Shown: piece after piece, positions 21,280 to 45,469 of the stretch
Layout: the number at the start of each line of letters is the position of its first letter
How positions within the stretch are numbered: the first letter of the stretch is position 1
NCBI GenBank assembly: GCA_007376535.1
Contig: VMGK01000005.1
Location: forward strand, 2,085 to 66,084
Length of the DNA stretch: 64,000 nucleotides
Origin: Candidatus Berkelbacteria bacterium Licking1014_7
GTDB lineage: Bacteria; Patescibacteriota; UBA1384; GWA2-35-9; CG2-30-39-44
Direction of reading: 5' to 3'
Made by a program: the position numbers and the translations under genes
The notes under the pieces: generated by a model
The model's database searches: none
Told to the model about the DNA's origin: nothing
Seen by the model: only the letters and a program-made list of their open reading frames with translations

Positions 21280-21374
21280 AGACCCATTAATGGAATATAG
21301 CGTAAGGAGCCCTGAATTGTTTGCAGCCAAAATTACTATGTTGTAGTAGAAAAGGTTATTTTGCAGTGGGTCTA
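21280..21374 (-). mobile_element. Short (about 95 bp) inverted copy of the MITE
   Basis: GACCCATTAATGG ... TTGCAGCCAAAATTACTATGTTGTAGTAG ... TTGCAGTGGGTC. Its internal core is the reverse complement of the 21725 copy. Confidence 0.45.
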
Positions 21375-21724: not shown

Positions 21725-21877
21725 GAACCCATGGCAAATCTCTCCAATCTACTACAATATGCCACATTTGGCTACAAAATGCTCATCGTTCGTCATCGTC
21801 CGCCTTGGCGGATGCTTCCTCACGTTTCGTATTTTTCGCTCAAATGTGATCATATTTCGCTACGATTGAGAGTTTTG
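21725..21877 (+). mobile_element. Complete MITE (153 bp) with 14-bp terminal inverted repeats GAACCCATgGCAAA / TTTGCAATGGGTTC
   Basis: Terminal inverted repeats with a single mismatch. Internal CCGCCTTGGCGG hairpin. Homologous copies at 3317, 24893, 29093, 29291 and others. Confidence 0.7.
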
Positions 21878-23540: not shown

Positions 23541-23616
23541 GCCGAAGTAGCTCAGTGGTTAGAGCAACTGTTTTGTAAACAGTAGGTCGTGGGTTCGAAT
23601 CCCACTTTCGGCTCCA
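23541..23616 (+). tRNA. tRNA-Thr: tRNA-Thr (anticodon TGT), CCA encoded
   Basis: GCCGAAG acceptor, anticodon loop TTTGTAA, T-loop GGTTCGAATCC, 3' CCA. Confidence 0.85.
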
Positions 23617-23843
23617 GGCAATCGGCAGGCGGGTAAACTGCCAAGGTTCCGGTTCAAGCCCGGTGGTGGGCTTAGGCGATAGCAGGCGGGTAAACTATTG
23701 GCGTCAGTTAGATTCTGACAGGGGGCTTACTCTGGCGGATTGGGGTAAACAGCCGCAGGTTTCCCGCCTGATTTTGGCAAGAAACCGATGATAAAATAAT
23801 TTTTTCATTTTTCATTTTGATTTTTAATTTGTATATAGTATAT

Positions 23844-23930
23844 GCTAGGGTTCCAGAGTGGTCAAATGGACCTGACTGTAAATCAGGTGGCTTTGTGCCT
23901 TCGGGGGTTCGAATCCCTCCCCTAGCACCA
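23844..23930 (+). tRNA. tRNA-Tyr: tRNA-Tyr (anticodon GTA), long variable arm, CCA encoded
   Basis: Acceptor GCTAGGG/CCCTAGC, anticodon loop CTGTAAA, type II variable arm, GGTTCGAATCC. Confidence 0.85.
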
Positions 23931-24012
23931 ATCGCTTCGCAGTGGAAATCCGAAATTTGAAATTTGAAGTTTAGTATATGCTATATTCGAACCGTATTAT
24001 TTTTTTTGCAAT

Positions 24013-24084
<72 letters not shown>

Positions 24085-24215
24085 AAGTAAAAATTAATTT
24101 TTCGAAATTCAAGTATTGTAATTTGAGATTTACCTATTCCGTTTTCGTAAAATGCGAAATTTCGGGATTTCTGATTTCGTGCTTTGGATTTCGAATTTAC
24201 TCCGTAGGAGTTGTT

Positions 24216-24401
24216 GTGCCAAAAAATAAAAAAAGACCATCAATTTATTTGAAATGCGAAAAGTGCAAAAGTTTGAATTATTTGTCAGTTCGCAGTGTCA
24301 TTAATACTCCGGAAAAATTGGAATTGAAAAAATTCTGCAAAAAATGCCGGGCGCACACTTTGCATAAAGAAGCGAAAATTTCCAAGCCCCGTAAGAAATA
24401 A
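24216..24401 (+). CDS. rpmG: 50S ribosomal protein L33
   Basis: CEKC...TPEKLELKKFCKKC...HKEAKI matches L33. GTG start 5 nt after TAGGAG. Confidence 0.8.
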   Translation: MPKNKKRPSIYLKCEKCKSLNYLSVRSVINTPEKLELKKFCKKCRAHTLHKEAKISKPRKK

Positions 24402-24553
24402 ACCGAAAAGATTGAGTTAAGCAAGATGTATATTGCAATCGCGAGAATATAACCAATCAAGCCAAGAGAACAAATTTCTAACGGGGCAAGGCGAAGAAGT
24501 AAGAATCACCAATATTGTTTGTATCTTGTAATTTGGAATTTATGAAAAACTAC

Positions 24554-24627
24554 GGGGGCGTGGGTTAGTGGTAAACTATCGGTCTCCAAAACCGATGCCG
24601 GAGGTTCGATTCCTCCCGCCCCTGCCA
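24554..24627 (+). tRNA. tRNA-Trp: tRNA-Trp (anticodon CCA), CCA encoded
   Basis: Acceptor GGGGGCG/CGCCCCT (G-U closing pair), anticodon loop CTCCAAA, GGTTCGATTCC. Confidence 0.8.
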
Positions 24628-24892: not shown

Positions 24893-24988
24893 AACCCATT
24901 GCAAATCTCTCCAATCTACTACAATATGCCACATTTGGCTACAAAATACTCATCGTTCGTCATCGTCCGCCTTGGCGGATGCTTCCTC
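24893..24988 (+). mobile_element. MITE copy (5' half) between tRNA-Trp and the methyltransferase gene
   Basis: About 97% identical to 3317-3413. Confidence 0.6.
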
Positions 24989-25006: not shown

Positions 25007-26011
25007 ATGGAAACAAAATCAAAAAATCGAGCATCAAGAAATAGAACCATAACTTTAGATAATGGCGAGATTTCTCGCTTGAGAAAGAAACTTGTCAAAA
25101 TAGATAAGCCGGTTTCTATTTCGGATATTGAGAATAAAACTATCAATCAAGATATTTTTCAGATTTTGGATTTTTTGCCAGATAATTTTGTTAATTTAGT
25201 TTTTGTAGACCCACCTTATAACTTAAACAAAACTTTTAACTTAACTGCTTTTAAGGCAATGGAGTCCGAAAAGTATGAGGAGTGGTTAGATTCGTGGGTT
25301 CAAAAAATAATCCGTTTATTAAAACCAAATGCATCGGTTTATATTTGTGGTGATTGGAAATCATCGGGAGCAATTTTTAATGTGGTAAAAAAATATTTTC
25401 AAATTCAAAATAGAATAACTTTTGAAAGAGAAAAAGGGCGGGGCGCAAAATCAAATTGGAAAAATTGCTCGGAAGATATTTGGTTTTGTACATTTTCAGA
25501 CAAGTATAACTTTGATGTTGATGCGGTAAAAATGACAAGGAAAGTTATTGCTCCATACAAAGACGAAAACGGAAATCCGAAAGATTGGGAAATAACGGAA
25601 AATGGAAATTATCGCATAACCCATCCCTCTAATATTTGGACCGACATTACAATTCCCTTTTGGTCTATGCCAGAAAATACTGACCACCCGACACAAAAAC
25701 CAGAAAAATTGGTTGCCAAAGTTATTTTGGCCAGTTCAAAACCAAATGATATTGTTTTTGATCCGTTTCTTGGTTCAGGCACAACATCTGTTGTGGCAAA
25801 AAAACTTGGTCGTAAATATGTTGGTATTGATATAGATGAATTATATTGTTGTTTGGCAGAAAAACGGCTTGAGATGGTTGATAATGACAAGACAATTCAG
25901 GGATATTCTGACGGAGTTTTTTGGGAAAGGAATACATTAAACGAACAAAATAATGGTAAAAATAAAAAGTCGGAAAATAATCATAATTTACTTTTTGATA
26001 AACTATTATAA
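25007..26011 (+). CDS. β-class N4C/N6A DNA methyltransferase (full length)
   Basis: VFVDPPYNL (motif IV) then HPTQKP...DPFLGSGTT (motif I). Confidence 0.85.
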   Translation: METKSKNRASRNRTITLDNGEISRLRKKLVKIDKPVSISDIENKTINQDIFQILDFLPDNFVNLVFVDPPYNLNKTFNLTAFKAMESEKYEEWLDSWVQKIIRLLKPNASVYICGDWKSSGAIFNVVKKYFQIQNRITFEREKGRGAKSNWKNCSEDIWFCTFSDKYNFDVDAVKMTRKVIAPYKDENGNPKDWEITENGNYRITHPSNIWTDITIPFWSMPENTDHPTQKPEKLVAKVILASSKPNDIVFDPFLGSGTTSVVAKKLGRKYVGIDIDELYCCLAEKRLEMVDNDKTIQGYSDGVFWERNTLNEQNNGKNKKSENNHNLLFDKLL

Positions 26012-26013
26012 AT

Positions 26014-26673
26014 ATGAAAAGTCAAATATTTTACGCAGATGAGTATAAAAAATTAGAAAAGAAAATCACCGAGTTTCTTAATTCTCAAACTGATTTTTTA
26101 TCTCCACGCACAATCGACAGCCCTCGAGCTGTCGGCGACGCAATACAGGATTTATTGGCAGATAATTTTGGTAAAATTCTAGGCGATTTAAGCTCAAATT
26201 ATTCTTCGGATTTTGCCAGACGCGCCATGGCGGATTTAGCCTTTAATGACAAAGATGGGTTTTATTATGTTGTTGATGTAAAAACCCATAGATTAGATTC
26301 AAGTTTCAATATGCCAAATCTTACATCAGTTGAAAGATTGGCAAGATTTTATGAAGATGATAAAAATTATTTCATAGTATTAAAAACCGATTATAAAATT
26401 CAAAAAACAAAAATAATTATAGACAAAGTTAATTTCGTTCCGATTGAATTTTTGGGCTGGGATTGTTTGACGCTTGGTGCTCTCGGTTGGGGGCAAATAC
26501 AAATCGCTAATTCAAATAATGTTAGTATAGTTGCTAAAAACAGCAGAAAAAAGTGGATGTTGGAATTATGTGATTCTCTTTTTGAATTTTATCCAAGAGA
26601 GATTGGAAAAATAAACGACAGAATTTTATATTTCAAGCGTGTTAGAAAATACTGGGAAGGTAAAAAGGGATAA
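26014..26673 (+). CDS. Putative type II restriction endonuclease (PD-(D/E)xK)
   Basis: Begins 3 nt after the methyltransferase stop. D...VDVK arrangement (DLAFNDKDGFYYVVDVKTH) fits PD-(D/E)xK. No other homology recognisable. Confidence 0.5.
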   Translation: MKSQIFYADEYKKLEKKITEFLNSQTDFLSPRTIDSPRAVGDAIQDLLADNFGKILGDLSSNYSSDFARRAMADLAFNDKDGFYYVVDVKTHRLDSSFNMPNLTSVERLARFYEDDKNYFIVLKTDYKIQKTKIIIDKVNFVPIEFLGWDCLTLGALGWGQIQIANSNNVSIVAKNSRKKWMLELCDSLFEFYPREIGKINDRILYFKRVRKYWEGKKG

Positions 26674-27226: not shown

Positions 27227-28030
27227 TTATTTTTTGATAAATTTCTGCGCAAGTTTGGCGATAACGGCGCTGGAATCATTTTTTTCAAAAGCGCGCAGGA
27301 TTTCGATCGGTATAGCAAAAATTACAGTGTTTGATTGATCTGACGAAAGATCGTTTAAGGTATTTAAAGTTCTAAGATGCAGGGCGCCGGTTGATGATGA
27401 CAATGTTTGCGCCGCCTTGGCTAAATTTTTTGAGGCGATCACTTCACCTTCTGCTTTGGTGATAACCGCGCGTTTTTCTCGTTCTGCCTCTGCTTGTTTG
27501 GCAATCACCCGTTGCATTTCTTGCGGAAGGGAAACATCTTTCAGGTCAACATTTTCCACAGTGATGCCCCAAGGATCAGTGAGTTTGTCAACAATGGTCT
27601 TAATCTGATTAGACACATCGTCGCGTTTGGAAAGCAAAGTGTCCAGATCAACTGAGCCAACAATATTTCGCATCGTGGTTTGGGCTATCTGCGAGATAGC
27701 GTAGTAAAAATTTTCCACTTCAAGTACAGCTTTCGACACATCAGCAACTTTGTAGTAAATGACCGCGTTGATTTTGACTGAAATATTATCGCGCGTGATG
27801 GCTTCTTGGTCTGGCACATCCACTGCTTTGACACGAATATCCACTTTGATTAGCGATTCAATGATTGGCAAAATTAGTCGCCAGCCCGGATTAATAATAT
27901 TGACAAATTTTCCCAGCCGAAATTTGACACCGCGTTCAAATTGGTTAATTTGGCGAATACTAACCAGGATTATGATTAAAATTACAATCGCTATAACTGA
28001 AAGGATGAGAGTGTCTAAAAAAAAGTTCAT
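27227..28030 (-). CDS. SPFH/band-7 (stomatin/prohibitin-like) membrane protein
   Basis: N-terminal TM then the characteristic RGVKFRLGKF...DLK..SLP and coiled-coil EAEREKRA region. Confidence 0.8.
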   Translation of the reverse strand: MNFFLDTLILSVIAIVILIIILVSIRQINQFERGVKFRLGKFVNIINPGWRLILPIIESLIKVDIRVKAVDVPDQEAITRDNISVKINAVIYYKVADVSKAVLEVENFYYAISQIAQTTMRNIVGSVDLDTLLSKRDDVSNQIKTIVDKLTDPWGITVENVDLKDVSLPQEMQRVIAKQAEAEREKRAVITKAEGEVIASKNLAKAAQTLSSSTGALHLRTLNTLNDLSSDQSNTVIFAIPIEILRAFEKNDSSAVIAKLAQKFIKK

Positions 28031-28155: not shown

Positions 28156-28461
28156 ATGCAGAAAGAAAAAAATAAATTTCCCAAATTCTTAAAACGATAT
28201 TTTTGGGACACGGATTTTTCATTGCTTGATAGGCAAAAAAACCAAAAATATATTATTGAGCGGATTTTGGATTGGGGCGATGAACAGGGTATTGAATGGT
28301 TGTTTCAGACCTATTCAAGCCAAGAAATTAAAGCGGTGGTATTAACATCGCGAGAATTATTTAAGAAAAGCATTAATTTTTGGGGAATCATTTTAGAGTT
28401 AGGAGAAAAATGGAGGAAAGAGGCATTAGCGAAAAGACAAAACAAAATTTGGAATTATTAG
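28156..28461 (+). CDS. Small hypothetical protein upstream of and overlapping the AbiEii-like gene (possible antitoxin partner)
   Basis: 101-aa ORF with a 52-nt overlap with the downstream gene. No recognisable domain. Confidence 0.35.
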   Translation: MQKEKNKFPKFLKRYFWDTDFSLLDRQKNQKYIIERILDWGDEQGIEWLFQTYSSQEIKAVVLTSRELFKKSINFWGIILELGEKWRKEALAKRQNKIWNY

Positions 28462-29051
28462 CCAAAACACATTTTATTGGACAATTTTATTTAGCCGGCG
28501 GAACGGCTTGCGGTTTGTATTTTGGGCACAGAATTTCTTATGATTTAGATTTTTTTTCCGAGCGAAAATTTAACGCGCAGAAAATCAGAGATGAGTTAGA
28601 AAAAATGGGCGAACTCAAAATAGACATTATTGACGAAAATACTTTTTTGGGTTTTTTGAATAAAGTAAAGATAAGTTTTTTTTATTATAAATATCCGCTG
28701 ATTGGCGAGACGCAGGTCTATAGAGGGGTGAGGATTGTTTCAAAAAAGGACTTGCAGGCAATGAAAATTGACGCTTTGCAGTCGCGCGGCACAAAAAGGG
28801 ACTTTATTGATTTGTATACGATTTTGCAAGCAGATAATTATTCTATAAAAAACGCATTAGATAATTTTAAGGAAAAATACCAAAAGGCAAATTATAATAT
28901 GGAGCATATTTTGATGAGTTTGGTATATTTTGAAGACGCGGATAGGGATAATCGTCTCAATATGTTGGTATCATACGACTGGGAAAAAATAAAAAATTAT
29001 TTTATTGAGGACGTTAAAGCATACGAAAAAAATAGATTAAAAATCGATTAA
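28410..29051 (+). CDS. AbiEii/AbiGii-family nucleotidyltransferase (DUF1814-like) toxin candidate
   Basis: LAGGTACGLYFGHRISYDLDFF resembles the GG(T/S)AL...R.S.DIDF motif of AbiEii toxins. AGGAG RBS 4 nt upstream. Confidence 0.5.
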   Translation: MEERGISEKTKQNLELLAKTHFIGQFYLAGGTACGLYFGHRISYDLDFFSERKFNAQKIRDELEKMGELKIDIIDENTFLGFLNKVKISFFYYKYPLIGETQVYRGVRIVSKKDLQAMKIDALQSRGTKRDFIDLYTILQADNYSIKNALDNFKEKYQKANYNMEHILMSLVYFEDADRDNRLNMLVSYDWEKIKNYFIEDVKAYEKNRLKID

Positions 29052-29092
29052 ACAGGCTCTAAGGAGGGAAATTGGCGCGGCATTATCCCTTA

Positions 29093-29290
29093 GAACCCAT
29101 TTCAAAAATCCATATATTGCACATCCATCGTCTGGCTGAATGGGCAGCTGCAACAGCAGATATTCTGGCTGCAAAGATTAGAATAATTCGTCAACAGAGC
29201 TTCTGGCTATGCTTCCTCATTATTCTAACTTTTCGCTCATAATCTCTACTGTTTCGCTCCTCAATCAACCAGACGATGGATGTGGGTTCT
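29093..29290 (+). mobile_element. Complete MITE copy (about 198 bp)
   Basis: Begins GAACCCATTTCAAA and ends GGATGTGGGTTC. Confidence 0.55.
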
Positions 29291-29424
29291 TTTATCTGCT
29301 ATTTTGGCTGCAAACAATTCAGAGCTCGTCAGTGTCCGCCAAGGCGGATGCCTTCTCGCTCTTCATTGTTTTCGCTCAAAATATCAAATAAAATTATCAA
29401 AAGAGAGTTTTATAATGGGTTCCT
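29291..29424 (+). mobile_element. Second, 5'-truncated MITE copy in tandem. Its 3' terminal repeat TTTTATAATGGGTTC contains the ATG of the downstream gene
   Basis: TTTTGGCTGCAAA ... TCCGCCAAGGCGGATGC ... TTTCGCTCAAA ... ATAATGGGTTC. Confidence 0.55.
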
Positions 29425-31862
29425 ACAATTCGTTTGAGAATTTTATTCATAAAATAAAAAGGCGAACTTATTTATCGTTATTTTTGTCGGTTTTGGTGGT
29501 GGTTGGTTTTGGCGCGGGATTGATTTTTTGGTCTAAAAATGTTTCACGCGGGGCGACTACTTTAAGTGGAACTATCAATGGCTTACGGACAATTAGCGGA
29601 GACGCGGTGATCAAGACCAACCAAACAGTCACTCACGATCAGGGAAATACTACCGGAGGAACAGGATTGGGAGTGAATGTGAGTGGCACTTTAACCTTGG
29701 AAGCCGGCGCCAAAATTGATGTGAGCGGGAAGGGATATAAGGGGGGATATATTTTTTTTAGCATGAATAATATAGGTGGTTATTATTATACAGCTTTATT
29801 TCCGGCTAAGGGAAGCAAGGATGGCAACGCTCCTCAACAGCAAAATCAAGCTGGTGCCGGCGGAGACTGGGAAAATGGCGGGGCAGGCGGCGGCACAGGA
29901 TATAGAACGGCAAATAGACTGGGCGTTGGCGGCGGCGGCGGCGGCGCGTTTGGCTATGGCTCAGGCGGAAAAACCAACCATTCTTCGGCAAGCCCTGGAT
30001 GTTATGGCGGCGGCGGCGCGGGCTGGAAAGGCAAGGGCGGGGCAGGCGTTTGTTCTGGATCGGCGGTTAACGGTGCAGTAAGCGCCAGCATAAATTTTTC
30101 TAATGACAGTTGGTATAATAACGAGATTCTTTTTGGCGCTGGCGGCGCCAGCGGATTTACCATTACGCAGGATAACTCGGAGGGTGATGGCGGCAACAGT
30201 GAATGCGTCAAAGGCGGCAATGGCGGAGGGGCGGTAAAAATAAAAGCCAAAAAATTAAAAATTGAATCCGGGGCAAGCATATCGGCGGCAGGAAAATCGG
30301 GCGGAAAAATGTGCGATCTGGCTTATAGAGTAAAGTGGTTAACTTTTGGACAATTTACTTTGGGAGCGGCTGGGGGAGGCGGAACAATTTATATTGAGGT
30401 TGACGAATTGGAATTGCCTAGCGGTAATGATTATAATTTTGATGTTTCAGGCGGCGATGGTTGGGGGGCGCTGAGCGGGTCGATGTGGGCATCTTCCGGA
30501 GCAGGAGGCGGAGGGATAGTTGTAATTAGAATCGCAGGGGGAGGAAAAATAAAAATCGGGAATAATTATGTAGATAACTTTGCGACGGTTTACGCCAGAG
30601 CAGATTCCAACAAAGGCATGCTTCGCAATATCATAAACGATGTTTATATTTTAACCCAGAAAATACCTGATAGTGCTTGGGGGGGAGACGGCAAAGAAAT
30701 TTTTGCCGGCAATCCGACCATTCCCGGTGGTTCCACCACCTGCGACACATCAAAAATTAAATTGACTGATCCGTCGTTTTCCAGCCAACCGGCGGCGAAT
30801 TCTCATTACCAGCGCGGTGATACTTTTTCCTATAAGGCGCAATATATTAGTCAAGACAGCGGTTCAAATTGTTCTGGCAAGTATCAATTATATTTCCAGA
30901 CCGCTTTATCAAATGATTTAGAATTTATTGGTGGCAGTAAATTGACTCCCGGAAATTTAGATCCAACAATAGGTGGCGGTTTATTTTCAACTCAACATTG
31001 GGAAGTAAATTCAGCCGGTTCTTACACTGGTGATATTAAGATAAAAATAAAAGATAATGCTTGCAATCAGGCAGGCGGCGGCGTTGAGAACAAAATTCAA
31101 ATTTATCAAAAATACGATAATGGTGTGCTGATGGCGCCATCATCAGGAAATCCAGTTTACTCTAATGCGAATATAATTGTTGATTGTCCGGGCGTGGCGA
31201 TTTCCGGCAATGTTGGCGCAAGCAGTATAACTACGCCCGATCTAAAAATTATCGGTAATTCAGTGGTGGCGATTACGGGTTCCTCGTCAGCCACGCTTGA
31301 TTCACAAGTAGTAAATTTATCTGGTTATACCCATTCAATCAATTTTTCCGACATAAATACAAATTTTGAAGCGCTAAAAACCCGGCGGGCAATTAAGCCG
31401 AATCCTTGGACAAATAATTTTAATTTGAATAAGTACAATAAACCCGAAGGTGGAGTGTGGAAAGAACATCCTACCCCTATGAATAGAACTTTTCTGCAAG
31501 GGTCGCGAGGCACGATATTTCATACTGGCGATTTGACAATAGATGGAATTTCTTGGCAAGGCGCGACGGCTGGTGTTTTGGGCATCGTGGTGAAAGATGG
31601 TAATGTGATGATCAAAGATTTAAATTTAAAAAATGTGGCGATTTACGCGTACGACACCGGTGGCGCGGAAGACGGAAAAATCACTTTTGGCACGGGCGCA
31701 ACGGACGAAACATTAGACATGACCGGTTCGTTTGTCGCTAAAAGCATTGAAATTAAAAGTAAGAAGGGTAATATTAAACATTCGGACGGATTAGATAAAA
31801 ATCCTCCGCCCGGATTTTCTAACTTGCAGTCGCAAATAAAAATTTTAGAAAAAGCGCGGTAG
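29415..31862 (+). CDS. Large glycine-rich secreted/surface protein (N-terminal signal anchor, predicted β-helix/adhesin-like)
   Basis: TM segment LSLFLSVLVVVGFGAGLIFW followed by long GGxGGxG tracts and NxxG repeats. Confidence 0.55.
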   Translation: MGSYNSFENFIHKIKRRTYLSLFLSVLVVVGFGAGLIFWSKNVSRGATTLSGTINGLRTISGDAVIKTNQTVTHDQGNTTGGTGLGVNVSGTLTLEAGAKIDVSGKGYKGGYIFFSMNNIGGYYYTALFPAKGSKDGNAPQQQNQAGAGGDWENGGAGGGTGYRTANRLGVGGGGGGAFGYGSGGKTNHSSASPGCYGGGGAGWKGKGGAGVCSGSAVNGAVSASINFSNDSWYNNEILFGAGGASGFTITQDNSEGDGGNSECVKGGNGGGAVKIKAKKLKIESGASISAAGKSGGKMCDLAYRVKWLTFGQFTLGAAGGGGTIYIEVDELELPSGNDYNFDVSGGDGWGALSGSMWASSGAGGGGIVVIRIAGGGKIKIGNNYVDNFATVYARADSNKGMLRNIINDVYILTQKIPDSAWGGDGKEIFAGNPTIPGGSTTCDTSKIKLTDPSFSSQPAANSHYQRGDTFSYKAQYISQDSGSNCSGKYQLYFQTALSNDLEFIGGSKLTPGNLDPTIGGGLFSTQHWEVNSAGSYTGDIKIKIKDNACNQAGGGVENKIQIYQKYDNGVLMAPSSGNPVYSNANIIVDCPGVAISGNVGASSITTPDLKIIGNSVVAITGSSSATLDSQVVNLSGYTHSINFSDINTNFEALKTRRAIKPNPWTNNFNLNKYNKPEGGVWKEHPTPMNRTFLQGSRGTIFHTGDLTIDGISWQGATAGVLGIVVKDGNVMIKDLNLKNVAIYAYDTGGAEDGKITFGTGATDETLDMTGSFVAKSIEIKSKKGNIKHSDGLDKNPPPGFSNLQSQIKILEKAR

Positions 31863-32121
31863 TCAAATATAAATCAAAAAGCAAATCCGCCAGCTGGCGG
31901 ATTAATCTCAAATCTCAAAATTCAAATCTCCCGTCCGCCATCGCTATCGCTCAGGCGATTAGCGGGCAGGCAAAATGACAATCCAAAATTCAAAACTCTA
32001 AATCCTAAATTCTAAATTCTAAGAAAATTATGTTCCCCATTTTCAACAACATCAATCACCAAAAATTTGACAAGCAAAACGGTTAGGTTGTATAATAGAG
32101 TTAATCAAAAGGAGAGGGAAA

Positions 32122-32685
32122 ATGGATCAAATAATCAGACCGCAAAATAGCGAGCGACCGGTAAGCTCGGCAGAAATTAAGAATACAATTCGCCTAAAAA
32201 ATCTGGCGACGGTTTTTGGTATTATTTCAATTTCCGTAATTATTTTATCGGCGCTTTCGTTCTTTATTGTCTGGCAAAAAAACAGCCAAATTTCATCAAT
32301 TCAAGATACCATCGATACCAAAAATCAGGGCTTGGACGTCTCGTATAAAACCATTATTTCTCAGCAGGAAACCCTCAAAAAACAAATTGCGGTTTTATCT
32401 GAGCAGGATACATCGTCAATTGATTACACCCAAGAATTGTGGGAAGAATTGTCTAAATCAGCAGTTAAAAATGTTCGATTGGTCGGTCTCACATTTGACA
32501 ATAAAACCATTTCTTTAGAAGGGCAAGCGGGAAGTTTTTCTGACATCGCGCGCCAGTTGGTGGCGTGGCGCCAGGCGACTAATTTTTCCAATGTGGAACT
32601 GGCATCTATCACTACTGCGGATAATGGACAAAAACAATTTGGCGCCCAGTTAAGCTTTAAGGTCACCCAAAAATCAAACGACTAA
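32122..32685 (+). CDS. pilN: PilN-like type IV pilus assembly protein (bitopic, coiled coil)
   Basis: Single TM after about 30 residues, coiled coil, position upstream of a PilO-like gene and pilB. Confidence 0.45.
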   Translation: MDQIIRPQNSERPVSSAEIKNTIRLKNLATVFGIISISVIILSALSFFIVWQKNSQISSIQDTIDTKNQGLDVSYKTIISQQETLKKQIAVLSEQDTSSIDYTQELWEELSKSAVKNVRLVGLTFDNKTISLEGQAGSFSDIARQLVAWRQATNFSNVELASITTADNGQKQFGAQLSFKVTQKSND

Positions 32686-32697
32686 TCCCCAAAATCA

Positions 32698-33351
32698 ATG
32701 ACCAGCGCGTACGAACAAAATCGTCAAAATTCGTCTTTAATTTTTCTTGAGGTGATTATTATAATCGCCGGATTGTATTTTGGCGTGTGGTGGCAGATGA
32801 ATAAAAACCGCGTCTTATCGCAAAATTTAAGCAGTAAACAGCAGGAATTCGCGATAGTAAAAGACAAAGAGGCGAAATTAGAAACATTAAAGCGGGAATT
32901 TTCCACGCGCAAATCAGAACTGCAAAATTTTAATATCGCGGCGCCTGAGATGTCAGAAATTCCCGAAGCGCTGATGATGATTGAGGCGATTGTGAGTCGC
33001 TCTGGCGCTGATTTGACGAATTTAACTCCCCAGAAACCCACTGGCGGCCAGGTTGAAATTGATTTGTGTCTGGCGTCAAATTATGAGCAGATGAAAACAT
33101 TTTTTACTATTTTGAAAAATAATTTAAGACCAGTGTCAGTTGATTCAATTAAGGTTTTAGCCAGTCAAGATGCCAGCGCCGCGCAAGCCAAATCGCTGTC
33201 TGTGTCAGTAAAATTAAAAATGCCTTATATGGTCAAAAATAACGACAAGACCTCTGATGGTTCAAGTAATAACCCGAGCGATAACTTAAGTAATAATCCC
33301 GGCGCCGGTCCAAGCGACGGGCAAACCATAAATAACACACAAAACGAATGA
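32698..33351 (+). CDS. pilO: PilO-like type IV pilus assembly protein
   Basis: N-terminal TM, coiled coil, position in the pilus operon. Confidence 0.45.
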   Translation: MTSAYEQNRQNSSLIFLEVIIIIAGLYFGVWWQMNKNRVLSQNLSSKQQEFAIVKDKEAKLETLKREFSTRKSELQNFNIAAPEMSEIPEALMMIEAIVSRSGADLTNLTPQKPTGGQVEIDLCLASNYEQMKTFFTILKNNLRPVSVDSIKVLASQDASAAQAKSLSVSVKLKMPYMVKNNDKTSDGSSNNPSDNLSNNPGAGPSDGQTINNTQNE

Positions 33352-33596
33352 TGATAAAATACAATAATTTTTTAATTGGGATGGGTATTTCTATAGTTCT
33401 GATAATTCTTTATATTTTTTTGTTAGTGTCGGGCAGGTCTGTAAGCGATAAAATCCAAGTTCAATCCGATATGTTAAATCCGCAGGAATTTCAAAATGGT
33501 CTCAACATCATCAGTAAAAAAGAAAAAAACGGGGATTTGCCAGTCAATACCAATGACGAATTACTGCAAAGAAGCGATCCGTTTGAAGGATTGTAG
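33348..33596 (+). CDS. Small membrane protein in the pilus operon (PilP-like?)
   Basis: N-terminal TM. Translationally coupled to the upstream gene. Confidence 0.3.
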   Translation: MMIKYNNFLIGMGISIVLIILYIFLLVSGRSVSDKIQVQSDMLNPQEFQNGLNIISKKEKNGDLPVNTNDELLQRSDPFEGL

Positions 33597-33861: not shown

Positions 33862-36093
33862 ATGGTTAATATTATTAAGTCACGCGACAAGAGAGATATT
33901 TTGGATGTCTTGCGCTCTAAAAATATTATTGATGAGTTAACCTACAATTTTATTAGCAAAAACTTTAGCACTAATGAAACGCGCATTCAGGCGCTGGAAA
34001 AAAAGAATATTGTTTCGCAGGAGGATTTATCCAAAGCCGCGGCGGAAATTTTTAATCTTCCGTTTGTCCATATTCAGGGAAAAAAGTTGGATTTTGAGGT
34101 ATTGAATTTAATTCCGTTTGAAATTTGTCAAAAATATAAAATTGTTTGTCTTGAAAAAAAGGGCAATGCCTATCAAATCGCTGTTGCCAGACCGTATCGT
34201 TTGGGCGGCAAAAAATCAGGACTATTGCACAACATTGAAAAAGAAAGATCAGTGGAGTTTCATTTGTCTGCCAGCACTGAGCCAGATGTTGATTGGGCTT
34301 TAAAGATTTATGAAAATTTTTTGTCTGAGCGGGCGGAAAAAAATACTCAGACCAACCTACCGTCCGCTCGGACTGATAAAGTGAAAATTTCTAATTTGCC
34401 TAGGGCTAAATTAGACGGACGATTTGATTTATTGGAAACAATCAGAAAAATTCCGCTGGAAATTATCAGACGTTATAAAATCGCGCTTTTTGAAATTTCA
34501 GATGAAAATATTTTTAAGATCGCCATGCTGGATTCGTTTGATCCGCGCGCCAGAGAAATTATCAATTTCATCAGTCAAAAAAACGGGGTGAAAGTTGAGC
34601 AGTATCAAATTGAGTCAAGGGATTTGGATTGGGTTTTGCAAAATTACAATTCTGCCGCGGCCGTTCAGCCAAGCGCGTCTAAAAACATTGAATCAGAAAA
34701 ATTAGCGCCGGATCAAGGCGCGCCCGACTCATCATCGTCAAAGGAAGTGATTGAAAAAAACGGTATGTTCACTATTCCTGAGGAAGCGATTGCCAAGCCC
34801 GGTTTATCCGGCGGCGAGGTGGACTTGGCTCAGGCAGACAAAACGGGCGCGATCAATCAAGATGAGATTGAAACGGATTTAGATACTTTTCTGGGGAAAC
34901 TGGTTACTAATGCCAAAGAATTGACGCAGATTATTGTGGAAGGTTTTGTGCCTAAAATGGTGGCGGGAATTTTGTCTTTGGGTATTAGTTTGCGCGCCTC
35001 TGATGTTCATCTGGAAGCCACCAGAAAGGGTTTGCGTCTAAGATATCGGGTTGATGGCGATTTGTTGGATTTTATTTATATGCCGATTGCTTTGCATCCG
35101 CCGATTATTTCCAGAATAAAAATTTTATCCGGTCTCAAAATTGATGAGCAGAGAATTCCCCAAGACGGCCGGTATAATGCCAAAGTCCAAAATCACGAAA
35201 TTGATGTTCGGGTTTCGTCATATCCGACAATTCATGGCGAAAAAATCGCCATGCGTCTTTTAGATAAGACCGCCAGCCAGTACAGTTTAGAGGATTTGGG
35301 GTTGACAGGCGCGCCGCTGGAAAAAATTAATCAAGAGATTATCAAGCCCTGGGGAGTGGTGATCATTACCGGTCCGACTGGTTCAGGTAAAAGCACGACT
35401 TTATACGCGATATTGAATGCAATTTCAAGTCCCAAAATCAATATCGTCACTTTGGAAGATCCGGTTGAGTATGATATTCCCGGGGTAAATCAAGCGCAAA
35501 TTAAGCCCAAAATCGGTTTTTCTTTTGCCGAAGGGCTAAGATCGATTTTGCGTCAGGATCCCAATGTGATAATGGTGGGCGAGGTGCGGGATTCTGAAAC
35601 AGCCAATCTGGTCACGCATGCGGCTTTAACCGGTCATTTGGTGCTTACCACTTTGCATACCAATGACGCGTCGTCCGCCCTGCCGCGATTAACCAATATG
35701 AAGGTTGAGCCGTATCTGATTACCAGCGCGATCAATGTAATTATTGCCCAGCGACTGATTAGAAAATTATGTCAGAAATGCAAACAGCCAATTAAAGTTC
35801 CCGCGCCGGTCCTAGAGTCAGAAGGGGTAAAAGACGTTAACGAGATGAAATTTTTTGGTCCGGGCAAAGGTTGCGGTGAATGCCGCAATGGTTATAAAGG
35901 CAGGATTGGAATTTTTGAAATTTTGGTGATGACTGACGCGATTGAGAAATTGGCGATAAATCACGCCCCGGTGTCGGAAATTTTGAAGCAGGCGATACAA
36001 GACGGAATGGTATCGTTAAAAGAAGACGGGATTGCCAAAGCCAAGCAGGGGATGGTGTCTTTGTCTGATATTTTGCAAGCAGTGAATGAGTGA
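33862..36093 (+). CDS. pilB: Type IV pilus assembly ATPase PilB (GspE family)
   Basis: GPTGSGKSTT Walker A, C-terminal tetracysteine CQKC...CGEC, N-terminal GSPII_E domains. Confidence 0.9.
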   Translation: MVNIIKSRDKRDILDVLRSKNIIDELTYNFISKNFSTNETRIQALEKKNIVSQEDLSKAAAEIFNLPFVHIQGKKLDFEVLNLIPFEICQKYKIVCLEKKGNAYQIAVARPYRLGGKKSGLLHNIEKERSVEFHLSASTEPDVDWALKIYENFLSERAEKNTQTNLPSARTDKVKISNLPRAKLDGRFDLLETIRKIPLEIIRRYKIALFEISDENIFKIAMLDSFDPRAREIINFISQKNGVKVEQYQIESRDLDWVLQNYNSAAAVQPSASKNIESEKLAPDQGAPDSSSSKEVIEKNGMFTIPEEAIAKPGLSGGEVDLAQADKTGAINQDEIETDLDTFLGKLVTNAKELTQIIVEGFVPKMVAGILSLGISLRASDVHLEATRKGLRLRYRVDGDLLDFIYMPIALHPPIISRIKILSGLKIDEQRIPQDGRYNAKVQNHEIDVRVSSYPTIHGEKIAMRLLDKTASQYSLEDLGLTGAPLEKINQEIIKPWGVVIITGPTGSGKSTTLYAILNAISSPKINIVTLEDPVEYDIPGVNQAQIKPKIGFSFAEGLRSILRQDPNVIMVGEVRDSETANLVTHAALTGHLVLTTLHTNDASSALPRLTNMKVEPYLITSAINVIIAQRLIRKLCQKCKQPIKVPAPVLESEGVKDVNEMKFFGPGKGCGECRNGYKGRIGIFEILVMTDAIEKLAINHAPVSEILKQAIQDGMVSLKEDGIAKAKQGMVSLSDILQAVNE

Positions 36094-36272
36094 TAGAAAT
36101 TGAAAATTGAAAATTGATGTGGAATGTTTGAAAATTGTGTTATTGAAAATTGATTGAAAATTGAAAATTGAAAATTGAAAATTTCTATATAGATAGTTTT
36201 AAGTTTTACGCTGTGGCTTGGATATTTTACATTTTACTTTTCAGATATAAAATATGTTATAATGAATTCATT

Positions 36273-37340
36273 ATGCAGATAATTAATGAAAAATTAGTTC
36301 AGTTTATTGATGAGGCGTTGAGATTTCAGGCATCGGATATTTTACTGATGACGGGCGTTTTCCCCAGTATTCGGATAAATGGCAATCTGCGCGCCATCTC
36401 AAACACCACTGCGCTTGCTCAAGGCGAGATGGACGATATTTTGAAAAGTATTTTATCTGATGAGACCTATCAGAAGTTTTTGAAAGACAAAGAAGCTGAT
36501 TTTTCATTTTCTCATCCGAAGGTGCGATTTCGGGGCAATGCCTATATGCAACGGGGAAAACCGGCGGTCTCTTTGCGTATTATTCCCCGGCAGATTCCTA
36601 ATTTTCAACAACTCGGCTTGCCGCCGATTGTTGAGAAAATCGCTTCGCACTCGCAGGGTTTTGTGTTAGTGACCGGTCCGACCGGGCATGGAAAGTCAAC
36701 CACTTTGGCTTCAATTATTGAGCATATTAACCAAAATCAAGCCAGTCATATTATCACGATTGAGGATCCAGTTGAATTTGAATTCGTTAATCAAAAAAGT
36801 ATTATTTCCCAGAGGCAAGTGGGGGTTGATACCGAAAGTTTTTCCCGGGCGTTAAAATCAGTGCTGCGCGAAGATCCCAATGTGATTTTAATCGGCGAGA
36901 TGCGCGATTTAGAATCAGTCAAATCAGCGCTTACCATAGCGGAAACCGGGCATTTGGTCTTGTCCACACTCCACACCAACAGCGCCAGTCAGTCAATTGA
37001 TAGAATAATTGATATTTTTCCGTCAGGCGAGCAACAGCAGGTTCGCCAGCAGTTAGCTTCTACCTTACTGGGTGTTTTTTCTCAACGTCTCTTGCCGCGC
37101 GCCAGTGGCAAAGGCAGGATTTTAGCCAGTGAGGTTTTAATCACAAATTCCGCGACAAGGAGTTTGATTCGGGAAGGCAAAGTTCATCAAATAGACAATG
37201 TCATATCCACTTCTGCGGCAGAGGGGATGATAAATTTGGACAAGGTTTTGGCAGAATTGGTTTCGCAAGGGGAAATTACTTTGGAGACCGCCCTGTCGTG
37301 GGCGGTTGACGCCAACACAGTCAAGCAATTAGTTTATTAG
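36273..37340 (+). CDS. pilT: Type IV pilus retraction ATPase PilT
   Basis: GPTGHGKSTT, Walker B IGEMRD, AHLV-type C-terminus. Start at MQIINEKL. Confidence 0.9.
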   Translation: MQIINEKLVQFIDEALRFQASDILLMTGVFPSIRINGNLRAISNTTALAQGEMDDILKSILSDETYQKFLKDKEADFSFSHPKVRFRGNAYMQRGKPAVSLRIIPRQIPNFQQLGLPPIVEKIASHSQGFVLVTGPTGHGKSTTLASIIEHINQNQASHIITIEDPVEFEFVNQKSIISQRQVGVDTESFSRALKSVLREDPNVILIGEMRDLESVKSALTIAETGHLVLSTLHTNSASQSIDRIIDIFPSGEQQQVRQQLASTLLGVFSQRLLPRASGKGRILASEVLITNSATRSLIREGKVHQIDNVISTSAAEGMINLDKVLAELVSQGEITLETALSWAVDANTVKQLVY

Positions 37341-37388
37341 TGTGTTACAAGAGGGCGCAGACAGAGGATCATTTTATGAAGAAAAATT

Positions 37389-38447
37389 ATGAAGAAAAAA
37401 GATTTTATTTTACTTAAAAAGGTTTCAACGGAAGAAAAAGCGTTTTTTTCCAAGCAATTAGCCGTAATGATCGGCGCTGGTTTGCAATTGGCAGGCGCGG
37501 TTAATATCTTAAAAAATCAGACCAGAAATCAATATTTTAAGCAGGTTTTAACCAAAATTTACGATGATTTGGAGCAAGGCAAGAAATTTTCCGAGGCGCT
37601 GGCAAATTATCCCAATGTTTTCAATCGCGTCTACATAAACATTGTATTTTCCGGTGAAAATTCTGGTAAATTAGACAAAGTGCTGGCAGAGTTAGGCGAT
37701 CAATTAACGCAAGAAAATGATTTTACTTCCCGTCTGCGCGGCGCAATGATATATCCGATGATTATTTTGATGGCGTTGATTGGGGTGGCGATTTTTACAT
37801 CAGTTAAACTCATTCCAAGTTTACAGCAAATGTTTTCTGAGGCAAAATCCGAATTGCCGTGGACAACGAAAATTGTATTTGGGTTTTCAAATTTTTTGAT
37901 TCATAGTTGGCTGTGGGTAATTTTGATAATTGTGGCGGGAGTGGTTTTGGTTATGTATTTTTTGCGCACCGCGCCCGGAGAAATGTTGCTTCACCAAATT
38001 CTGCTGAAAGAGCCGTTTGGTCTATTTAAAAAAATTTATCTCTTGCGTTTTACCCGTACGCTCGGATCTTTGCTTTCTTCCGGCGTGCCGATTATTGACG
38101 CGTTGAATATCACTTCCGAAGTGGTGGGCAATGATGTTTATCGCGAGGAATTGCAATTTTTTGCCAATGAACTTGAAAGAGGCGCTCCCTTGTCTGTGCC
38201 GGTCTCGCGCAGCAAATTGTTTCCGTATTTTATTTCGCAAATGATTATTGTGGGCGAGAAGACCGGGCAGACCGATAAAATTTTAGTTAATTTAGCCGAA
38301 AATTTTTACAAAGAAACCACTTATCAGATTGATAATTTTGCTAAGACCTTTGAACCGGTTATAATATTAATAATTGGAATGGGTGTGGCGCTGTTGGTTT
38401 TCGCGGTGATTATGCCGATTTACCAATTCGCCCAATTTGTGGGATAA
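37389..38447 (+). CDS. pilC: Type IV pilus platform protein PilC (GspF family)
   Basis: Duplicated T2SSF domains with three TM segments. Confidence 0.85.
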   Translation: MKKKDFILLKKVSTEEKAFFSKQLAVMIGAGLQLAGAVNILKNQTRNQYFKQVLTKIYDDLEQGKKFSEALANYPNVFNRVYINIVFSGENSGKLDKVLAELGDQLTQENDFTSRLRGAMIYPMIILMALIGVAIFTSVKLIPSLQQMFSEAKSELPWTTKIVFGFSNFLIHSWLWVILIIVAGVVLVMYFLRTAPGEMLLHQILLKEPFGLFKKIYLLRFTRTLGSLLSSGVPIIDALNITSEVVGNDVYREELQFFANELERGAPLSVPVSRSKLFPYFISQMIIVGEKTGQTDKILVNLAENFYKETTYQIDNFAKTFEPVIILIIGMGVALLVFAVIMPIYQFAQFVG

Positions 38448-42185: not shown

Positions 42186-42944
42186 TTGATGTTTGCAGAT
42201 TTAATCATAATTTTTATTTTTGGCTTAGGGCTGGGGTCGTTTGCCGGGGTGATTATTTGTCGCAGAAAAACCCCTTTTCTGATAGTTGCCAAACCCAGCC
42301 ACTGCGATTATTGTAAGCGCAAACTGGGATTTTTGGATTTAATCCCAGTGGTAAGTTTTGTCTTGCAAAAAGGAAAATGCCATTATTGTTGCAAAAAGAT
42401 CAGTTGGTTTTATCCGGGCGTTGAAATTTTATCTGGTATGGCTTTTGCCATAAATTGGTATTTTTTCAAATCGCAAAATCAAGATATCTCGCATTTGGTT
42501 TTGTCTAATGCGCTGATTTTTATTTTAATCATTATTGCGTTTATTGATTTTAAGCAGATGATTGTGCCTGATTCGTTAGTGCTGATTATTTTGTTGATCG
42601 CGCTTGTCAAAATGTTTTTGGGAAAGACCTACCTGGCAGGTTTTGAGGGATTGGCGCTGGCAGGCGGTTTTTTAGCAGTATTGGCTATCGCTGGCAGGGG
42701 CAATTGGATGGGTTGGGGCGATGTGAAATTAGCCGGCGCGCTCGGCATATTTTTGGGATTTTCTGGTTCGCTGGCAATGATTTTTAACGCCTTTATCATC
42801 GGCGCTTTAGTGTCAGTATTTTTATTGATAATCAAAGATAAAAAACTCAAAGATCATATTCCTTTTGCTCCTTTTATTGTGATCGGCGCTTTTTTGGCGC
42901 TATGGTTAGACCAGATAATATCAAATTATGTTTTATGGTTTTAA
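42186..42944 (+). CDS. pilD: Prepilin peptidase PilD (A24 family)
   Basis: N-terminal CDYC...CHYC zinc motif and conserved Asp-containing TM helices. Confidence 0.85.
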   Translation: MMFADLIIIFIFGLGLGSFAGVIICRRKTPFLIVAKPSHCDYCKRKLGFLDLIPVVSFVLQKGKCHYCCKKISWFYPGVEILSGMAFAINWYFFKSQNQDISHLVLSNALIFILIIIAFIDFKQMIVPDSLVLIILLIALVKMFLGKTYLAGFEGLALAGGFLAVLAIAGRGNWMGWGDVKLAGALGIFLGFSGSLAMIFNAFIIGALVSVFLLIIKDKKLKDHIPFAPFIVIGAFLALWLDQIISNYVLWF

Positions 42945-43437
42945 GAATGAGAAAGGTTTGTCTCTAATTGAGTTGGTTATTTCTATTTCAATCATCAGTA
43001 TTTTAACAGTGGCGGGCGTGATTTCTTTGAGCAAGACCAAGACATATCAAAATGTGGATATTGCCACAGGTGAATTGAAAGTCACGATTATAAAAGCCAA
43101 AAATTATGCGCAAAATCCGCCGGAAAAATACCAAGGATTGGATTATAAACAATATGGCGTAAAGATTGACAAAACAAATAATAAATATTGGTTAGTGGCT
43201 AAAAAAAGCGATGGCGGCAACACAGATTTAATAGAATATAATTTGCCAGATAAAGTTATTTTTGGCAACATAAATTTGAAAAAAAACACCGCTGTGCTTT
43301 CCGAAATTATTTTTGATATTGAAAGCCGAGCCAAAATTACTAACTTAGGTGAAGACGGGACCATTGAGATAAAAAATAATGTAGACACAAAGACCATAAT
43401 TATAAAATATCCGTATGGATCAGTTGAAGCGCGGTAA
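42928..43437 (+). CDS. Minor pilin / pseudopilin
   Basis: Leader ...NEKG|LSLIELVISISI. Confidence 0.6.
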   Translation: MFYGFKNEKGLSLIELVISISIISILTVAGVISLSKTKTYQNVDIATGELKVTIIKAKNYAQNPPEKYQGLDYKQYGVKIDKTNNKYWLVAKKSDGGNTDLIEYNLPDKVIFGNINLKKNTAVLSEIIFDIESRAKITNLGEDGTIEIKNNVDTKTIIIKYPYGSVEAR

Positions 43438-45300: not shown

Positions 45301-45469
45301 TAATCCGTAGACAGCAAGCGAGGTTCAGATTTCTGATTTTGGAAGAAGTCTAGTAAGTCTTGCCGAGGAAATATTGTTAAATTGTTTTTAACCTTGAATT
45401 TCGTAATTCAAGGTATTTAATCAATATTTACCAACTGCGGAAACCGCAGTTTTTTAAAACGGGAACAAT

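Follow-up and report, generated by a model that had tools for sequence, protein, structure and literature searches.

A modular glycine-rich surface protein beside type IV pilus genes in a Berkelbacteria genome: a putative pilus-linked attachment factor

The glycine-rich gene and the pilus locus

A gene for an 815-aa glycine-rich protein was found upstream of a type IV pilus gene cluster, and on the same strand, in the window, by which we mean the whole 64-kb stretch of DNA that was analysed. The gene and the pilus genes were located as follows.

29415..31862, plus strand: coding sequence of 815 aa, hypothetical protein CEN89_208 of Ca. Berkelbacteria bacterium Licking1014_7 (ORF list; identical database protein; homologues align from M1)
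31884..31903, no strand assigned: perfect 8-bp stem hairpin, AATCCGCC-AGCT-GGCGGATT, 22 nt past the stop codon
32067..32096, plus strand: perfect σ70 consensus promoter, TTGACA-18-TATAAT, 25 nt 5' of the pilN start
32122..33596, plus strand: pilN, pilO and a conserved 82-aa membrane protein with C-terminal NG-x-LP...NPF (Pfam PilN/PilO matches; BLASTP between loci; small-protein alignment)
32122-32685, plus strand: PilN (Pfam)
32698-33351, plus strand: PilO (Pfam)
33862..38447, plus strand: pilB (T2SSE plus MshEN), pilT and pilC (Pfam for pilB only; pilT and pilC by their translations and by T2SSE/T2SSF matches in the L001 equivalents)
33862-36093, plus strand: PilB (Pfam)
36168-37340, plus strand: T2SSE-family ORF read as PilT
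37389-38447, plus strand: PilC (length and position)

The ORF runs from ATG 29415 to the stop codon at 31860-31862, and a purine-rich AAAGAGAG lies about 7 nt 5' of the ATG. An 860-aa reading from ATG 29280 was dropped, as the homologues do not extend upstream and align from M1 of the 815-aa form. Glycine makes up 17.2% of the protein, compared with a mean of 6.2±1.9% (maximum 10.3) among the 44 other ORFs of the window, so that it lies about 5.8 standard deviations out. The 815-aa ORF and its extreme glycine richness, both reported in an earlier note on this DNA, were thus borne out, and the three tracts quoted there were recovered in the translation: GGAGGGTGY at residues 155-163, GVGGGGGGAFGYGSGG at 170-185 and GGGGAGWKGKGGAG at 198-211. 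Between G150 and G367, 19 glycines were invariant in eight homologues of 24-43% identity, and the region is therefore not random low complexity.

The spacer between the glycine-rich gene and pilN measures 259 nt. The role of its hairpin as a plus-strand terminator is uncertain because the T-run is on the minus-strand side. The promoter is one of only two 12/12 sites within the 64 kb, and the corresponding site before pilN scored 12/12 in the related loci L001, L003 and L004 and 11/12 in L002 and L006. Considering that a consensus σ70 promoter precedes pilN, the pilus operon probably starts 3' of the glycine-rich gene, and with a promoter of its own it does not require co-transcription with that gene. 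The earlier note had placed the gene directly upstream of, and leading into, the pilus locus; the adjacency is conserved, while the spacer and its promoter part the gene from pilN. The six loci with the largest spacers have such a consensus promoter before pilN, an observation that counts against a role in the pilus.

Downstream of pilC, pilins and a prepilin peptidase are encoded, and the pilins of the window match PF07963. The minor pilins are located at 42928-45062, about 11 kb from the glycine-rich gene, which adjoins the pilN end. PilM was found neither among the 29 larger ORFs of the window (Pfam) nor among the called genes of L001, L012 and L013. In systems with PilM and PilN, an INLLP-like motif is the PilM-binding motif; the alignment of the PilN N-termini contained no such motif.

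Export signal and domain layout

The protein was divided into the following elements.

29466..29531, plus strand: hydrophobic helix, residues ~18-39, after the basic KIKRR; signal anchor or uncleaved signal peptide (Kyte-Doolittle maximum at residues 18-40; AF2 helix 7-40)
29547..29759, plus strand: predicted first β-helix rungs, residues ~45-115, in which the motifs VTHDQGN and GTLTLEAGAKIDVSGKGYKGG are conserved
29835..30230, plus strand: glycine-richest zone, residues 141-272, with Gly at 44 of 132 positions (33%; composition, invariant glycines, pLDDT 30-55)
29928..29946, plus strand: (GGC)6 trinucleotide run, codons of G172-G177; no other DNA-level repeat underlies the glycine tracts (Tandem Repeats Finder)
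30216..30569, plus strand: predicted β-helix rungs GG-x-GGG-A-V-x-I-x-A-x-x-L-x-I-x-x-G-x-x-I-x-A-x-G, residues ~268-385
30777..31139, plus strand: probable Ig-like β-sandwich, residues ~455-575, of DUF11 type in relatives, with invariant C550 (seven low-pLDDT strands; weak Foldseek matches to Ig-like domains)
31176..31859, plus strand: conserved C-terminal domain, predicted β-helical and DUF7305-related, residues ~588-815, starting at the invariant C591-P592 (profile A4, 206 bits; common to 72 relatives)
31803..31817, plus strand: PPPGF motif, residues 797-801, then a tail of 14 residues with EKAR at its end (C-termini of 72 relatives; alignment A4)

Hydropathy and the AF2 model gave a single N-terminal membrane helix preceded by the basic KIKRR, in agreement with the signal anchor that had been proposed for the protein. 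A Sec-type N-terminus was found in all 72 family members and a prepilin leader in none of them. A long hydrophobic anchor, of the kind seen in the bitopic PilN and PilO, is present in the 815-aa protein and in the relatives closest to it; in several relatives, short, cleavable-looking signal peptides stand in place of the anchor. The residues after the helix are predicted to lie outside the cell, and the protein would be exported by Sec and either membrane-anchored or released. Pilins are recognised by a class III signal peptide, in which a short basic leader and the cleavage motif G/FTLxE are followed by the hydrophobic α1 helix. A type IV pilin or pseudopilin was rejected: no N_methyl match (PF07963) was obtained at E ≤ 10, the N-terminus, MGSYNSFENFIHKIKRRTYLSLFLSV..., does not contain the class III motif, and neither does any of the 72 relatives. 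ComZ of Thermus thermophilus (PDB 6qvi), a pilin with an N-terminal pilin helix and a prepilin leader, differs from our protein, which has neither.

Structure prediction gave β-helix rungs and not a disordered chain devoid of them. β-helix, the fold suggested in the earlier note, is the predicted class of the confidently modelled parts, although overall pLDDT is low (~56) and the glycine tracts quoted in its support have low-confidence models (pLDDT 30-55). The C-terminal domain reached pLDDT ~70-77 for residues 700-800. The middle domain is probably Ig-like, at low model confidence, and DUF11 matches were found at the equivalent position in the relatives P0013, P0015, P0017 and P0059.

It is rather improbable, in our estimate, that the glycine tracts are not rungs at all and form an element inserted in the β-helix, either a polyglycine-II helix bundle or a flexible disordered linker. 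Residues 110-270 have pLDDT 30-55 in both models and contain only isolated β-bridges; runs of four to six glycines are parted by single aromatic residues; and the less glycine-rich P0062 joins the same two rungs with ~55 instead of ~155 residues, as an insertion might. Polyglycine-II helix bundles occur in the glycine-rich domain of ALK/LTK, in phage gp38 adhesins and in snow-flea antifreeze protein. However, sequence tests gave no match to PF12810 or to PDB chains, those of ALK and gp38 included, and an ALK/LTK-type domain was rejected. Moreover, the zone reads as three GGGG-x-aromatic-x-x-G-x-GG units with W152, F179 and W204 spaced by 25-27 residues, which comes close to the 44-50-residue GGG(G) spacing of the modelled part, about two rung lengths; and the invariant glycines speak against a disordered linker.

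Family modularity and conserved neighbourhood

The C-terminal module is common to about 70 cluster representatives (72 relatives), in which it follows differing N-terminal domains; only about nine of these representatives have the glycine-rich domain. The other heads include Laminin_G_3, Kelch, PKD, PA14, GLEYA, VWA and Big_2, and judged from these assignments the variable heads appear to be typical binding domains. The family consensus at the extreme C-terminus is PPPGF-x(8-12)-E-x-AP. In 17 of the 72 members, PF23981 (DUF7305) was matched at E ≤ 0.001, with 28.5 bits for P0006 and 30.1 bits for P0017 against a gathering threshold of 27 bits. On the model, which has 185 positions, the C-terminal ~110 residues of relatives cover positions ~81-185, and the matches fall where the profile built on our protein also matches. 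The 815-aa protein itself had no DUF7305 match in Pfam even at E ≤ 10; its kinship with DUF7305 therefore rests on transitive homology. DUF7305 is uncharacterised, and no mention of it or of PF23981 was found in the literature searched; the present family, at ~230 aa, is longer, and its defining feature is the terminal PPPGF...E-x-AP tail.

At E cut-offs as loose as 10 or 1, the protein matched nothing in Pfam, NCBIfam or PHROGs, and PDB sequence searches with three profiles, one full-length and one for each half, returned only noise (the tau repeat PGGG-V-x-I at E 0.01, rifin, OspB). In the word-indexed protein-database search, the full-length query gave three matches and the C-terminal 375 aa one fragment (P0075); profile A4 gave none there, probably a limit of this search, as its own family should match. 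The scan of GTDB genomes found no relative. Within the window, profile searches found no second copy of either module, and the small genes preceding the relatives had no homologue there. A phage tail-fibre origin was dropped after tblastn gave no match in 50,697 phage records and PHROGs gave none. The protein appears, from sequence comparison, to belong to a small uncharacterised family of surface proteins.

Twelve related loci were chosen from the best matches and not at random, and two of their contigs were too short to tell. A homologue lies directly upstream of pilN, pilO, the small gene and pilB in 8 of the 12. Among the 10 informative loci it lies upstream of pilN in nine, eight of them directly; the comparison that had been suggested for the gene thus found its family present in related pilus loci, not absent. 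The order homologue, pilN, pilO, gene of ~85 aa, pilB was read in the window and in L001, L002, L003, L004, L006, L010 and L013. L011 keeps this order apart from an additional small gene of 97 aa ahead of pilN, and it has two family genes in tandem, of which one bears a Kelch-type head. A β-propeller gene separates the homologue from pilN in L012. PilN proteins of L001, L003, L006 and L004 are only ~30-41% identical to that of the window (BLASTP), and the adjacency is therefore not the result of recent shared ancestry alone. P0010 and P0030 are linked to pil genes though they do not have the glycine-rich head. Linkage to the pilus genes tracks the C-terminal module and not the head. The relative P0017 (L008) is not near pilus genes, an observation that counts against a pilus role.

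Known systems and possible functions

Several known classes of surface protein were compared with the 815-aa protein. PilY1-type proteins are non-pilin, tip-associated adhesins of type IVa pili and are normally encoded with minor pilins. The protein resembles PilY1/PilC in being large, Sec-exported, non-pilin and encoded within a type IV pilus gene cluster, and in combining a constant C-terminal domain with a variable N-terminal part; some relatives also carry VWA or β-propeller heads. Unlike PilY1/PilC genes, its gene adjoins pilN and not the minor pilins, whose distance also counts against a pilus role. Membership of PilY1/PilC was rejected, as no Pfam or NCBIfam family was matched at E ≤ 10 and the C-terminal domain was modelled as a β-helix and not as a propeller. 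Tāpirins bind cellulose. Those of Caldicellulosiruptor (PDB 4wa0, 6n2b, 6n2c) are not glycine-rich and have neither the DUF11/DUF7305 module nor the PPPGF tail, and the PDB sequence search with the full-length and the two half-length profiles found no tāpirin chain at E ≤ 10.

The likeness to HMW1, EtpA, FHA, HxuA, Ag43 and the ice-binding DUF3494 proteins exists at the fold level only, and the ice-binding family was not matched. β-Helical adhesins of the TPS and autotransporter type were rejected, since Pfam gave no match to haemagglutination-activity, autotransporter or pertactin families. TPS and autotransporter pathways need an outer membrane. CPR bacteria reportedly have none (PMC6744442). 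A calcium β-roll of the RTX/PE_PGRS kind was also rejected: no HemolysinCabind match was found in Pfam, and GGDG motifs occur in isolation, not as tandem GGXGXD nonapeptides.

Taken together, it is plausible that the protein is a putative pilus-linked attachment factor. Its head would be a right-handed β-helix in which segments rich in glycine and aromatic residues replace or expand the middle rungs, its middle module may serve as an Ig-like spacer, and the constant, β-helical, DUF7305-like C-terminal module with the PPPGF...E-x-AP tail would tie it to the pilus apparatus or filament. The variable head, which may be a glycine-rich β-helix, a Kelch-type propeller, or a lectin-like, PA14, VWA or PKD domain, would bind a surface outside the cell, for example that of a host cell or a substrate. 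Binding by the head, attachment of the constant module to the pilus and any part in episymbiosis are all inferred. By analogy, the protein would be a non-pilin pilus accessory, and to us the case for an exported surface protein that works with the pilus, comparable in function to PilY1 or tāpirins, appears evenly balanced.

Two other functions were weighed against it. We consider it unlikely that the protein acts independently of the pilus, as a structural protein of the wall or S-layer or as a β-helical enzyme degrading or modifying polysaccharides, and that its adjacency to pilN is gene order without shared function. The adjacency is kept across loci whose pilus proteins are ~25-40% identical and whose upstream flanks differ, and it is kept when the head domain is exchanged, so that chance gene order is a poor explanation; no enzyme family was found in Pfam or NCBIfam. 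Less likely still would be a structural part of the pilus machine, an anchored extracellular component at the gene position of pilM that works with PilN, PilO and the 82-aa protein, for example as a collar or guide through the wall or S-layer where there is no outer membrane or secretin. The gene does sit where pilM normally precedes pilN, the scanned ORFs and called genes contain no PilM, the PilN N-termini do not show its binding motif, and the long anchor recalls PilN and PilO. Nevertheless, such a part would be expected to be conserved from end to end, whereas in this family constancy is confined to the C-terminal third, and lectin, propeller or VWA domains take the place of the head; several relatives have cleavable-looking signal peptides and no anchor, the protein has no cytoplasmic domain able to replace the actin-like PilM, and the pil operon promoter lies downstream of the gene.

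A more far-reaching version of the attachment-factor reading is possible but doubtful. According to it, the DUF11-DUF7305 module and the invariant PPPGF...E-x-AP tail would together form a device specialised for docking or sorting, which places swappable heads on a type IV pilus with a pilM-less cluster, in Berkelbacteria and probably other CPR. These proteins would then form a new class of non-pilin, pilus-displayed adhesins setting the choice of host or surface, and the head described here would be a β-helix made partly of glycine/aromatic rungs or of polyglycine-II, a structural type of which no solved protein yet offers an example.

Few protein systems are as strongly enriched in CPR/Patescibacteria as type IV pili, for which a central part in the associations of these bacteria with other organisms has been proposed (PMC6744442). 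Saccharibacterium TM7x, which has been cultivated, needs its pili for normal host binding (PMC12206443), and there the adhesin candidate is PilX2, a pilin carrying an extra domain. The family described here would differ from that solution in being non-pilin, with a constant module and swappable heads, encoded beside pilus assembly genes in uncultivated lineages. If the pilus link is true, its genes would be candidate determinants of host recognition and markers of host range in Berkelbacteria-like organisms, and the conserved C-terminal tail would offer a handle on how non-pilin proteins are coupled to pili where there is no outer membrane. If it is not, the protein would be an ordinary β-helical surface protein, the database name of one relative, 'glycine-rich cell wall structural protein 1.8-like', seems to be an artefact of composition, and a genomic context would still be gained for DUF7305.

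The glycine-rich protein and its predicted fold

The 815-residue open reading frame described in the earlier note was recovered on the forward strand, from an ATG at 29415 to a stop at 31862, with the purine-rich AAAGAGAG just 5' of the ATG. A longer reading from 29280 is a possible frame, yet homologues start at the same Met as the 815-aa form, and it was rejected. The product was identical to the hypothetical protein CEN89_208 of Candidatus Berkelbacteria bacterium Licking1014_7 in the protein database search; it had no family match in Pfam, NCBIfam, or PHROGs, permissive thresholds included, and none among PDB sequences. Because its one hydrophobic helix (about residues 18–40) follows a KIKRR stretch, the bulk of the protein is predicted to be extracytoplasmic.

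The three quoted glycine tracts were found at residues 155–163, 170–185, and 198–211. Of the protein's residues 17.2% are glycine, and in the stretch 141–272 the count is 44 of 132; the window's remaining 44 ORFs averaged 6.2 ± 1.9%, with 10.3% as the highest value. Since a single short (GGC)6 run is the sole DNA-level repeat beneath this richness and eight homologues of just 24–43% identity all preserve 19 glycines in the stretch G150 to G367, the richness is, judged by sequence comparison, a conserved structural property rather than drift or slippage.

The β-helix that had been proposed was borne out in part. Both AlphaFold2 models, one of full length (8 sequences; pLDDT 56, pTM 0.45) and one of residues 41–430 (11 sequences; pLDDT 57, pTM 0.68), were rich in strands, with confident segments at residues 41–110, 270–300, 320–385, and 700–800, and the rung motif GG-x-GGG-hydrophobic-x-I-x-A-x-x-L-x-I-x-x-G-x-x-I-x-A-x-G occurs several times in the sequence. 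However, the glycine-richest zone (about residues 110–270), home of all three tracts, reached only pLDDT 30–55. It can be read as three GGGG-x-aromatic-x-x-G-x-GG units with aromatics 25–27 residues apart, a spacing compatible with glycine-rich rungs. That this zone is instead non-β-helical, for example a polyglycine-II element or an insertion, seems rather improbable to us; in its favor, the relative P0062 needs about 55 residues to bridge this gap, versus about 155.

A constant C-terminal module under variable heads

A HMMER search run exhaustively against 1.84 billion cluster representatives (E ≤ 0.001) retrieved 72 relatives. The glycine-rich N-terminal region was common to only about nine of them (P0002–P0007, P0020, P0059, and P0062, the last with tandem, less glycine-rich copies of the module). 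All ten clusters looked up were singletons or nearly so, and the sub-family is therefore rare. In the other relatives similarity was confined to the last ~230 residues, a domain that starts with an invariant Cys-Pro (C591-P592), contains four segments (GTIIV.G, LGIIV.G, AIYAP.G, and F.GS.VA), and in nearly all members is closed at the extreme C-terminus by PPPGF-x(8-12)-E-x-AP. Pfam DUF7305 was matched by 17 of the 72, the full-length relative P0006 and P0017 scoring above its gathering threshold. Because the 815-aa protein has no direct match and is connected only through such relatives, its putative membership of DUF7305 is by transitive homology.

Directly before this module, relatives carry a DUF11 Ig-like domain; AlphaFold2 modeled the equivalent segment here, with low confidence, as a sandwich of seven strands, and its Ig-like Foldseek matches were weak. 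The N-terminal parts vary across the wider family (Laminin_G_3, Kelch-type propellers, PKD, PA14, GLEYA, VWA, Big_2, and βγ-crystallin). All members have a Sec-type N-terminus, and a prepilin leader was found in none of the 72. One relative (TSC93733.1, locus L010) is labeled 'glycine-rich cell wall structural protein 1.8-like', a plant-derived label most probably due to glycine composition, not homology. In three related loci (L004 1-124, L005 784-1095, and L006 568-897) an ORF of ~100 aa directly upstream of the homologue encodes a signal peptide and the start of a DUF11-like domain (…YTITKE…PNDEIRYKITVTK); the ORF may represent a small secreted protein in its own right or part of a split gene.

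Linkage to the type IV pilus genes

Downstream of the gene lie, in order, PilN, PilO, an 82-aa membrane protein, PilB, a T2SSE-family ORF read as PilT, and PilC, followed by a giant pilin-like protein, a pilin, a prepilin peptidase, further pilins, and a PilX-like protein; the pilT and pilC calls were based on translations and the equivalent genes of L001. The adjacency pointed out earlier extends to relatives. Among 12 related loci, the homologue lay directly 5' of pilN-pilO-(~85 aa)-pilB in L001, L002, L003, L004, L006, L010, and L013; L011 had the same order with one small gene inserted, and L012 one β-propeller gene between homologue and pilN. The contigs of L005 and L007 are too short to show the gene order, and in L008 (carrying P0017) the homologue lies away from pilus genes. 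The loci were chosen from best hits, so this share is indicative, not a statistic. The downstream genes are orthologous to those of the window yet diverged (25–44% identity, BLASTP). Because P0010 and P0030 are pil-linked without a glycine-rich head and L011 carries a tandem pair of family genes, of which one has a Kelch-type head, the linkage tracks the C-terminal module, not the glycine-rich head. Of the new evidence, this gene context is the strongest, and it is solid.

The ~85-aa membrane protein (window region 32122-33596; L001–L013) always lies between pilO and pilB, ends in a conserved NG-x-LP(I/V)...(D/N)PF motif, and has no Pfam match. Just past pilC, 38816-41341 (+) encodes a protein of 841 aa that has a hydrophobic helix at its N-terminus, two globular domains of pilin type (T2SSG, E 1e-7, two stretches; weak ComP_DUS match), linkers rich in Thr/Pro, and additional β-rich segments. 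This is apparently a tandem pilin-like protein of unusual size.

A spacer of 259 nt separates the gene from pilN, and only two 12/12 promoter sites occur in the 64-kb window.

Hairpin and promoter sites (window unless a related locus is named)
31884-31903: perfect hairpin in the 259-nt spacer
32067-32096, +: perfect σ70 consensus promoter, TTGACA-18-TATAAT, upstream of pilN
~28093, −: the other 12/12 site, preceding a band-7-like gene (27227-28030)
L001 12349-12377: pilN promoter, 12/12
L003 3385-3414: pilN promoter, 12/12
L004 2773-2802: pilN promoter, 12/12
L002 3103-3132: pilN promoter, 11/12
L006 4321-4350: pilN promoter, 11/12

Upstream of pilN, the window and these five loci thus share a perfect or near-perfect TTGACA-17/18-TATAAT; more distant loci had weaker matches (9–10/12), with exact TTGACA in three of four. 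Since the consensus recurs in this spacer across related loci, the pilus operon most probably starts at pilN, and the glycine-rich protein gene is most probably a conserved pil neighbor with its own transcription. The 363-nt spacer 5' of that gene (29052-29414) is strongly structured (MFE −121.6 kcal/mol, z −7.1 versus shuffles) and contains a ~165-nt hairpin (29120-29284); against Rfam nothing exceeded threshold (ssnA, 17.9 bits, under its gathering score). It also includes one copy of a palindromic intergenic repeat of ~100 nt, with core GTCCGCC-TTGG-CGGAT, which is dispersed in the window in at least six copies (29290-29393, 21767-21844, 45172-45252, 3359-3413, 24934-24988, and 21307-21333). 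The hairpin past the stop codon has a similar core, and the repeats resemble a family of REP- or MITE-like elements.

Candidate function and the wider window

The reading with most support, to which we give an even chance, is that of an exported surface protein in three modules: the constant C-terminal module would couple it functionally to the type IV pilus system, and the variable head would bind something outside the cell. A structural component of the pilus machine at the pilM position has some appeal: no pilM turned up in the scanned window ORFs or in the genes called in the longer related loci, and the long, variable PilN N-termini of the window and L001–L013 lack the INLLP-type motif, the usual PilM-binding motif of PilN. 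However, the heads of the family are swapped, which argues against a core machine part, and we consider this quite unlikely. A pilus-independent surface protein or β-helical enzyme is unlikely too, if slightly less so.

The favored surface-protein reading resembles PilY1, in which the C-terminal domain is constant and the N-terminal domain variable. The nearest structural and contextual analogue is the tāpirins of Caldicellulosiruptor, a monoderm in which these cellulose-binding β-helix proteins have their genes next to the pilus locus. Largely sequence-based membership tests placed the protein outside the pilins (the family has no prepilin leader), PilY1, tāpirins, TPS or autotransporter adhesins, RTX β-rolls, and ALK-type glycine-rich domains. 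It is of an already known kind, the non-pilin surface proteins linked to type IV pilus loci, in a new form. The literature searched yielded nothing on DUF7305 or this family, and Patescibacteria pilus loci as described, with pilM-pilN-pilO and pilin-borne adhesin candidates, include no protein of this kind (PMC6744442; PMC12206443). In uncultivated CPR bacteria, the family makes a good candidate for a host-recognition role.

Other features of the window
23541-24624: tRNA cluster
25007-26673, +: restriction-modification-like ORF pair just upstream of the gene (resemblance from translations alone)
28156-29051, +: pair of DUF6922 and AbiEii genes (type IV toxin-antitoxin), likewise just upstream of the glycine-rich protein gene
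45287-45428, +: ribosomal protein L10 leader (RF00557, 46.6 bits), directly past the pilus cluster, before rplJ-rplL
49948-52461 and 53172-56096, +: two large tandem VirD4/TrwB-type coupling-protein-like ATPases (TrwB_AAD_bind, TraG-D_C)

The ArgRS and β-CASP genes lie ~17–19 kb upstream of the gene in the window versus ~7–9 kb upstream of the homologue in L001; additional DNA thus appears to lie between those genes and the glycine-rich protein gene in the window. Patescibacteria are reported to have a monoderm-type type IV secretion system, of which the tandem ATPases may be components.
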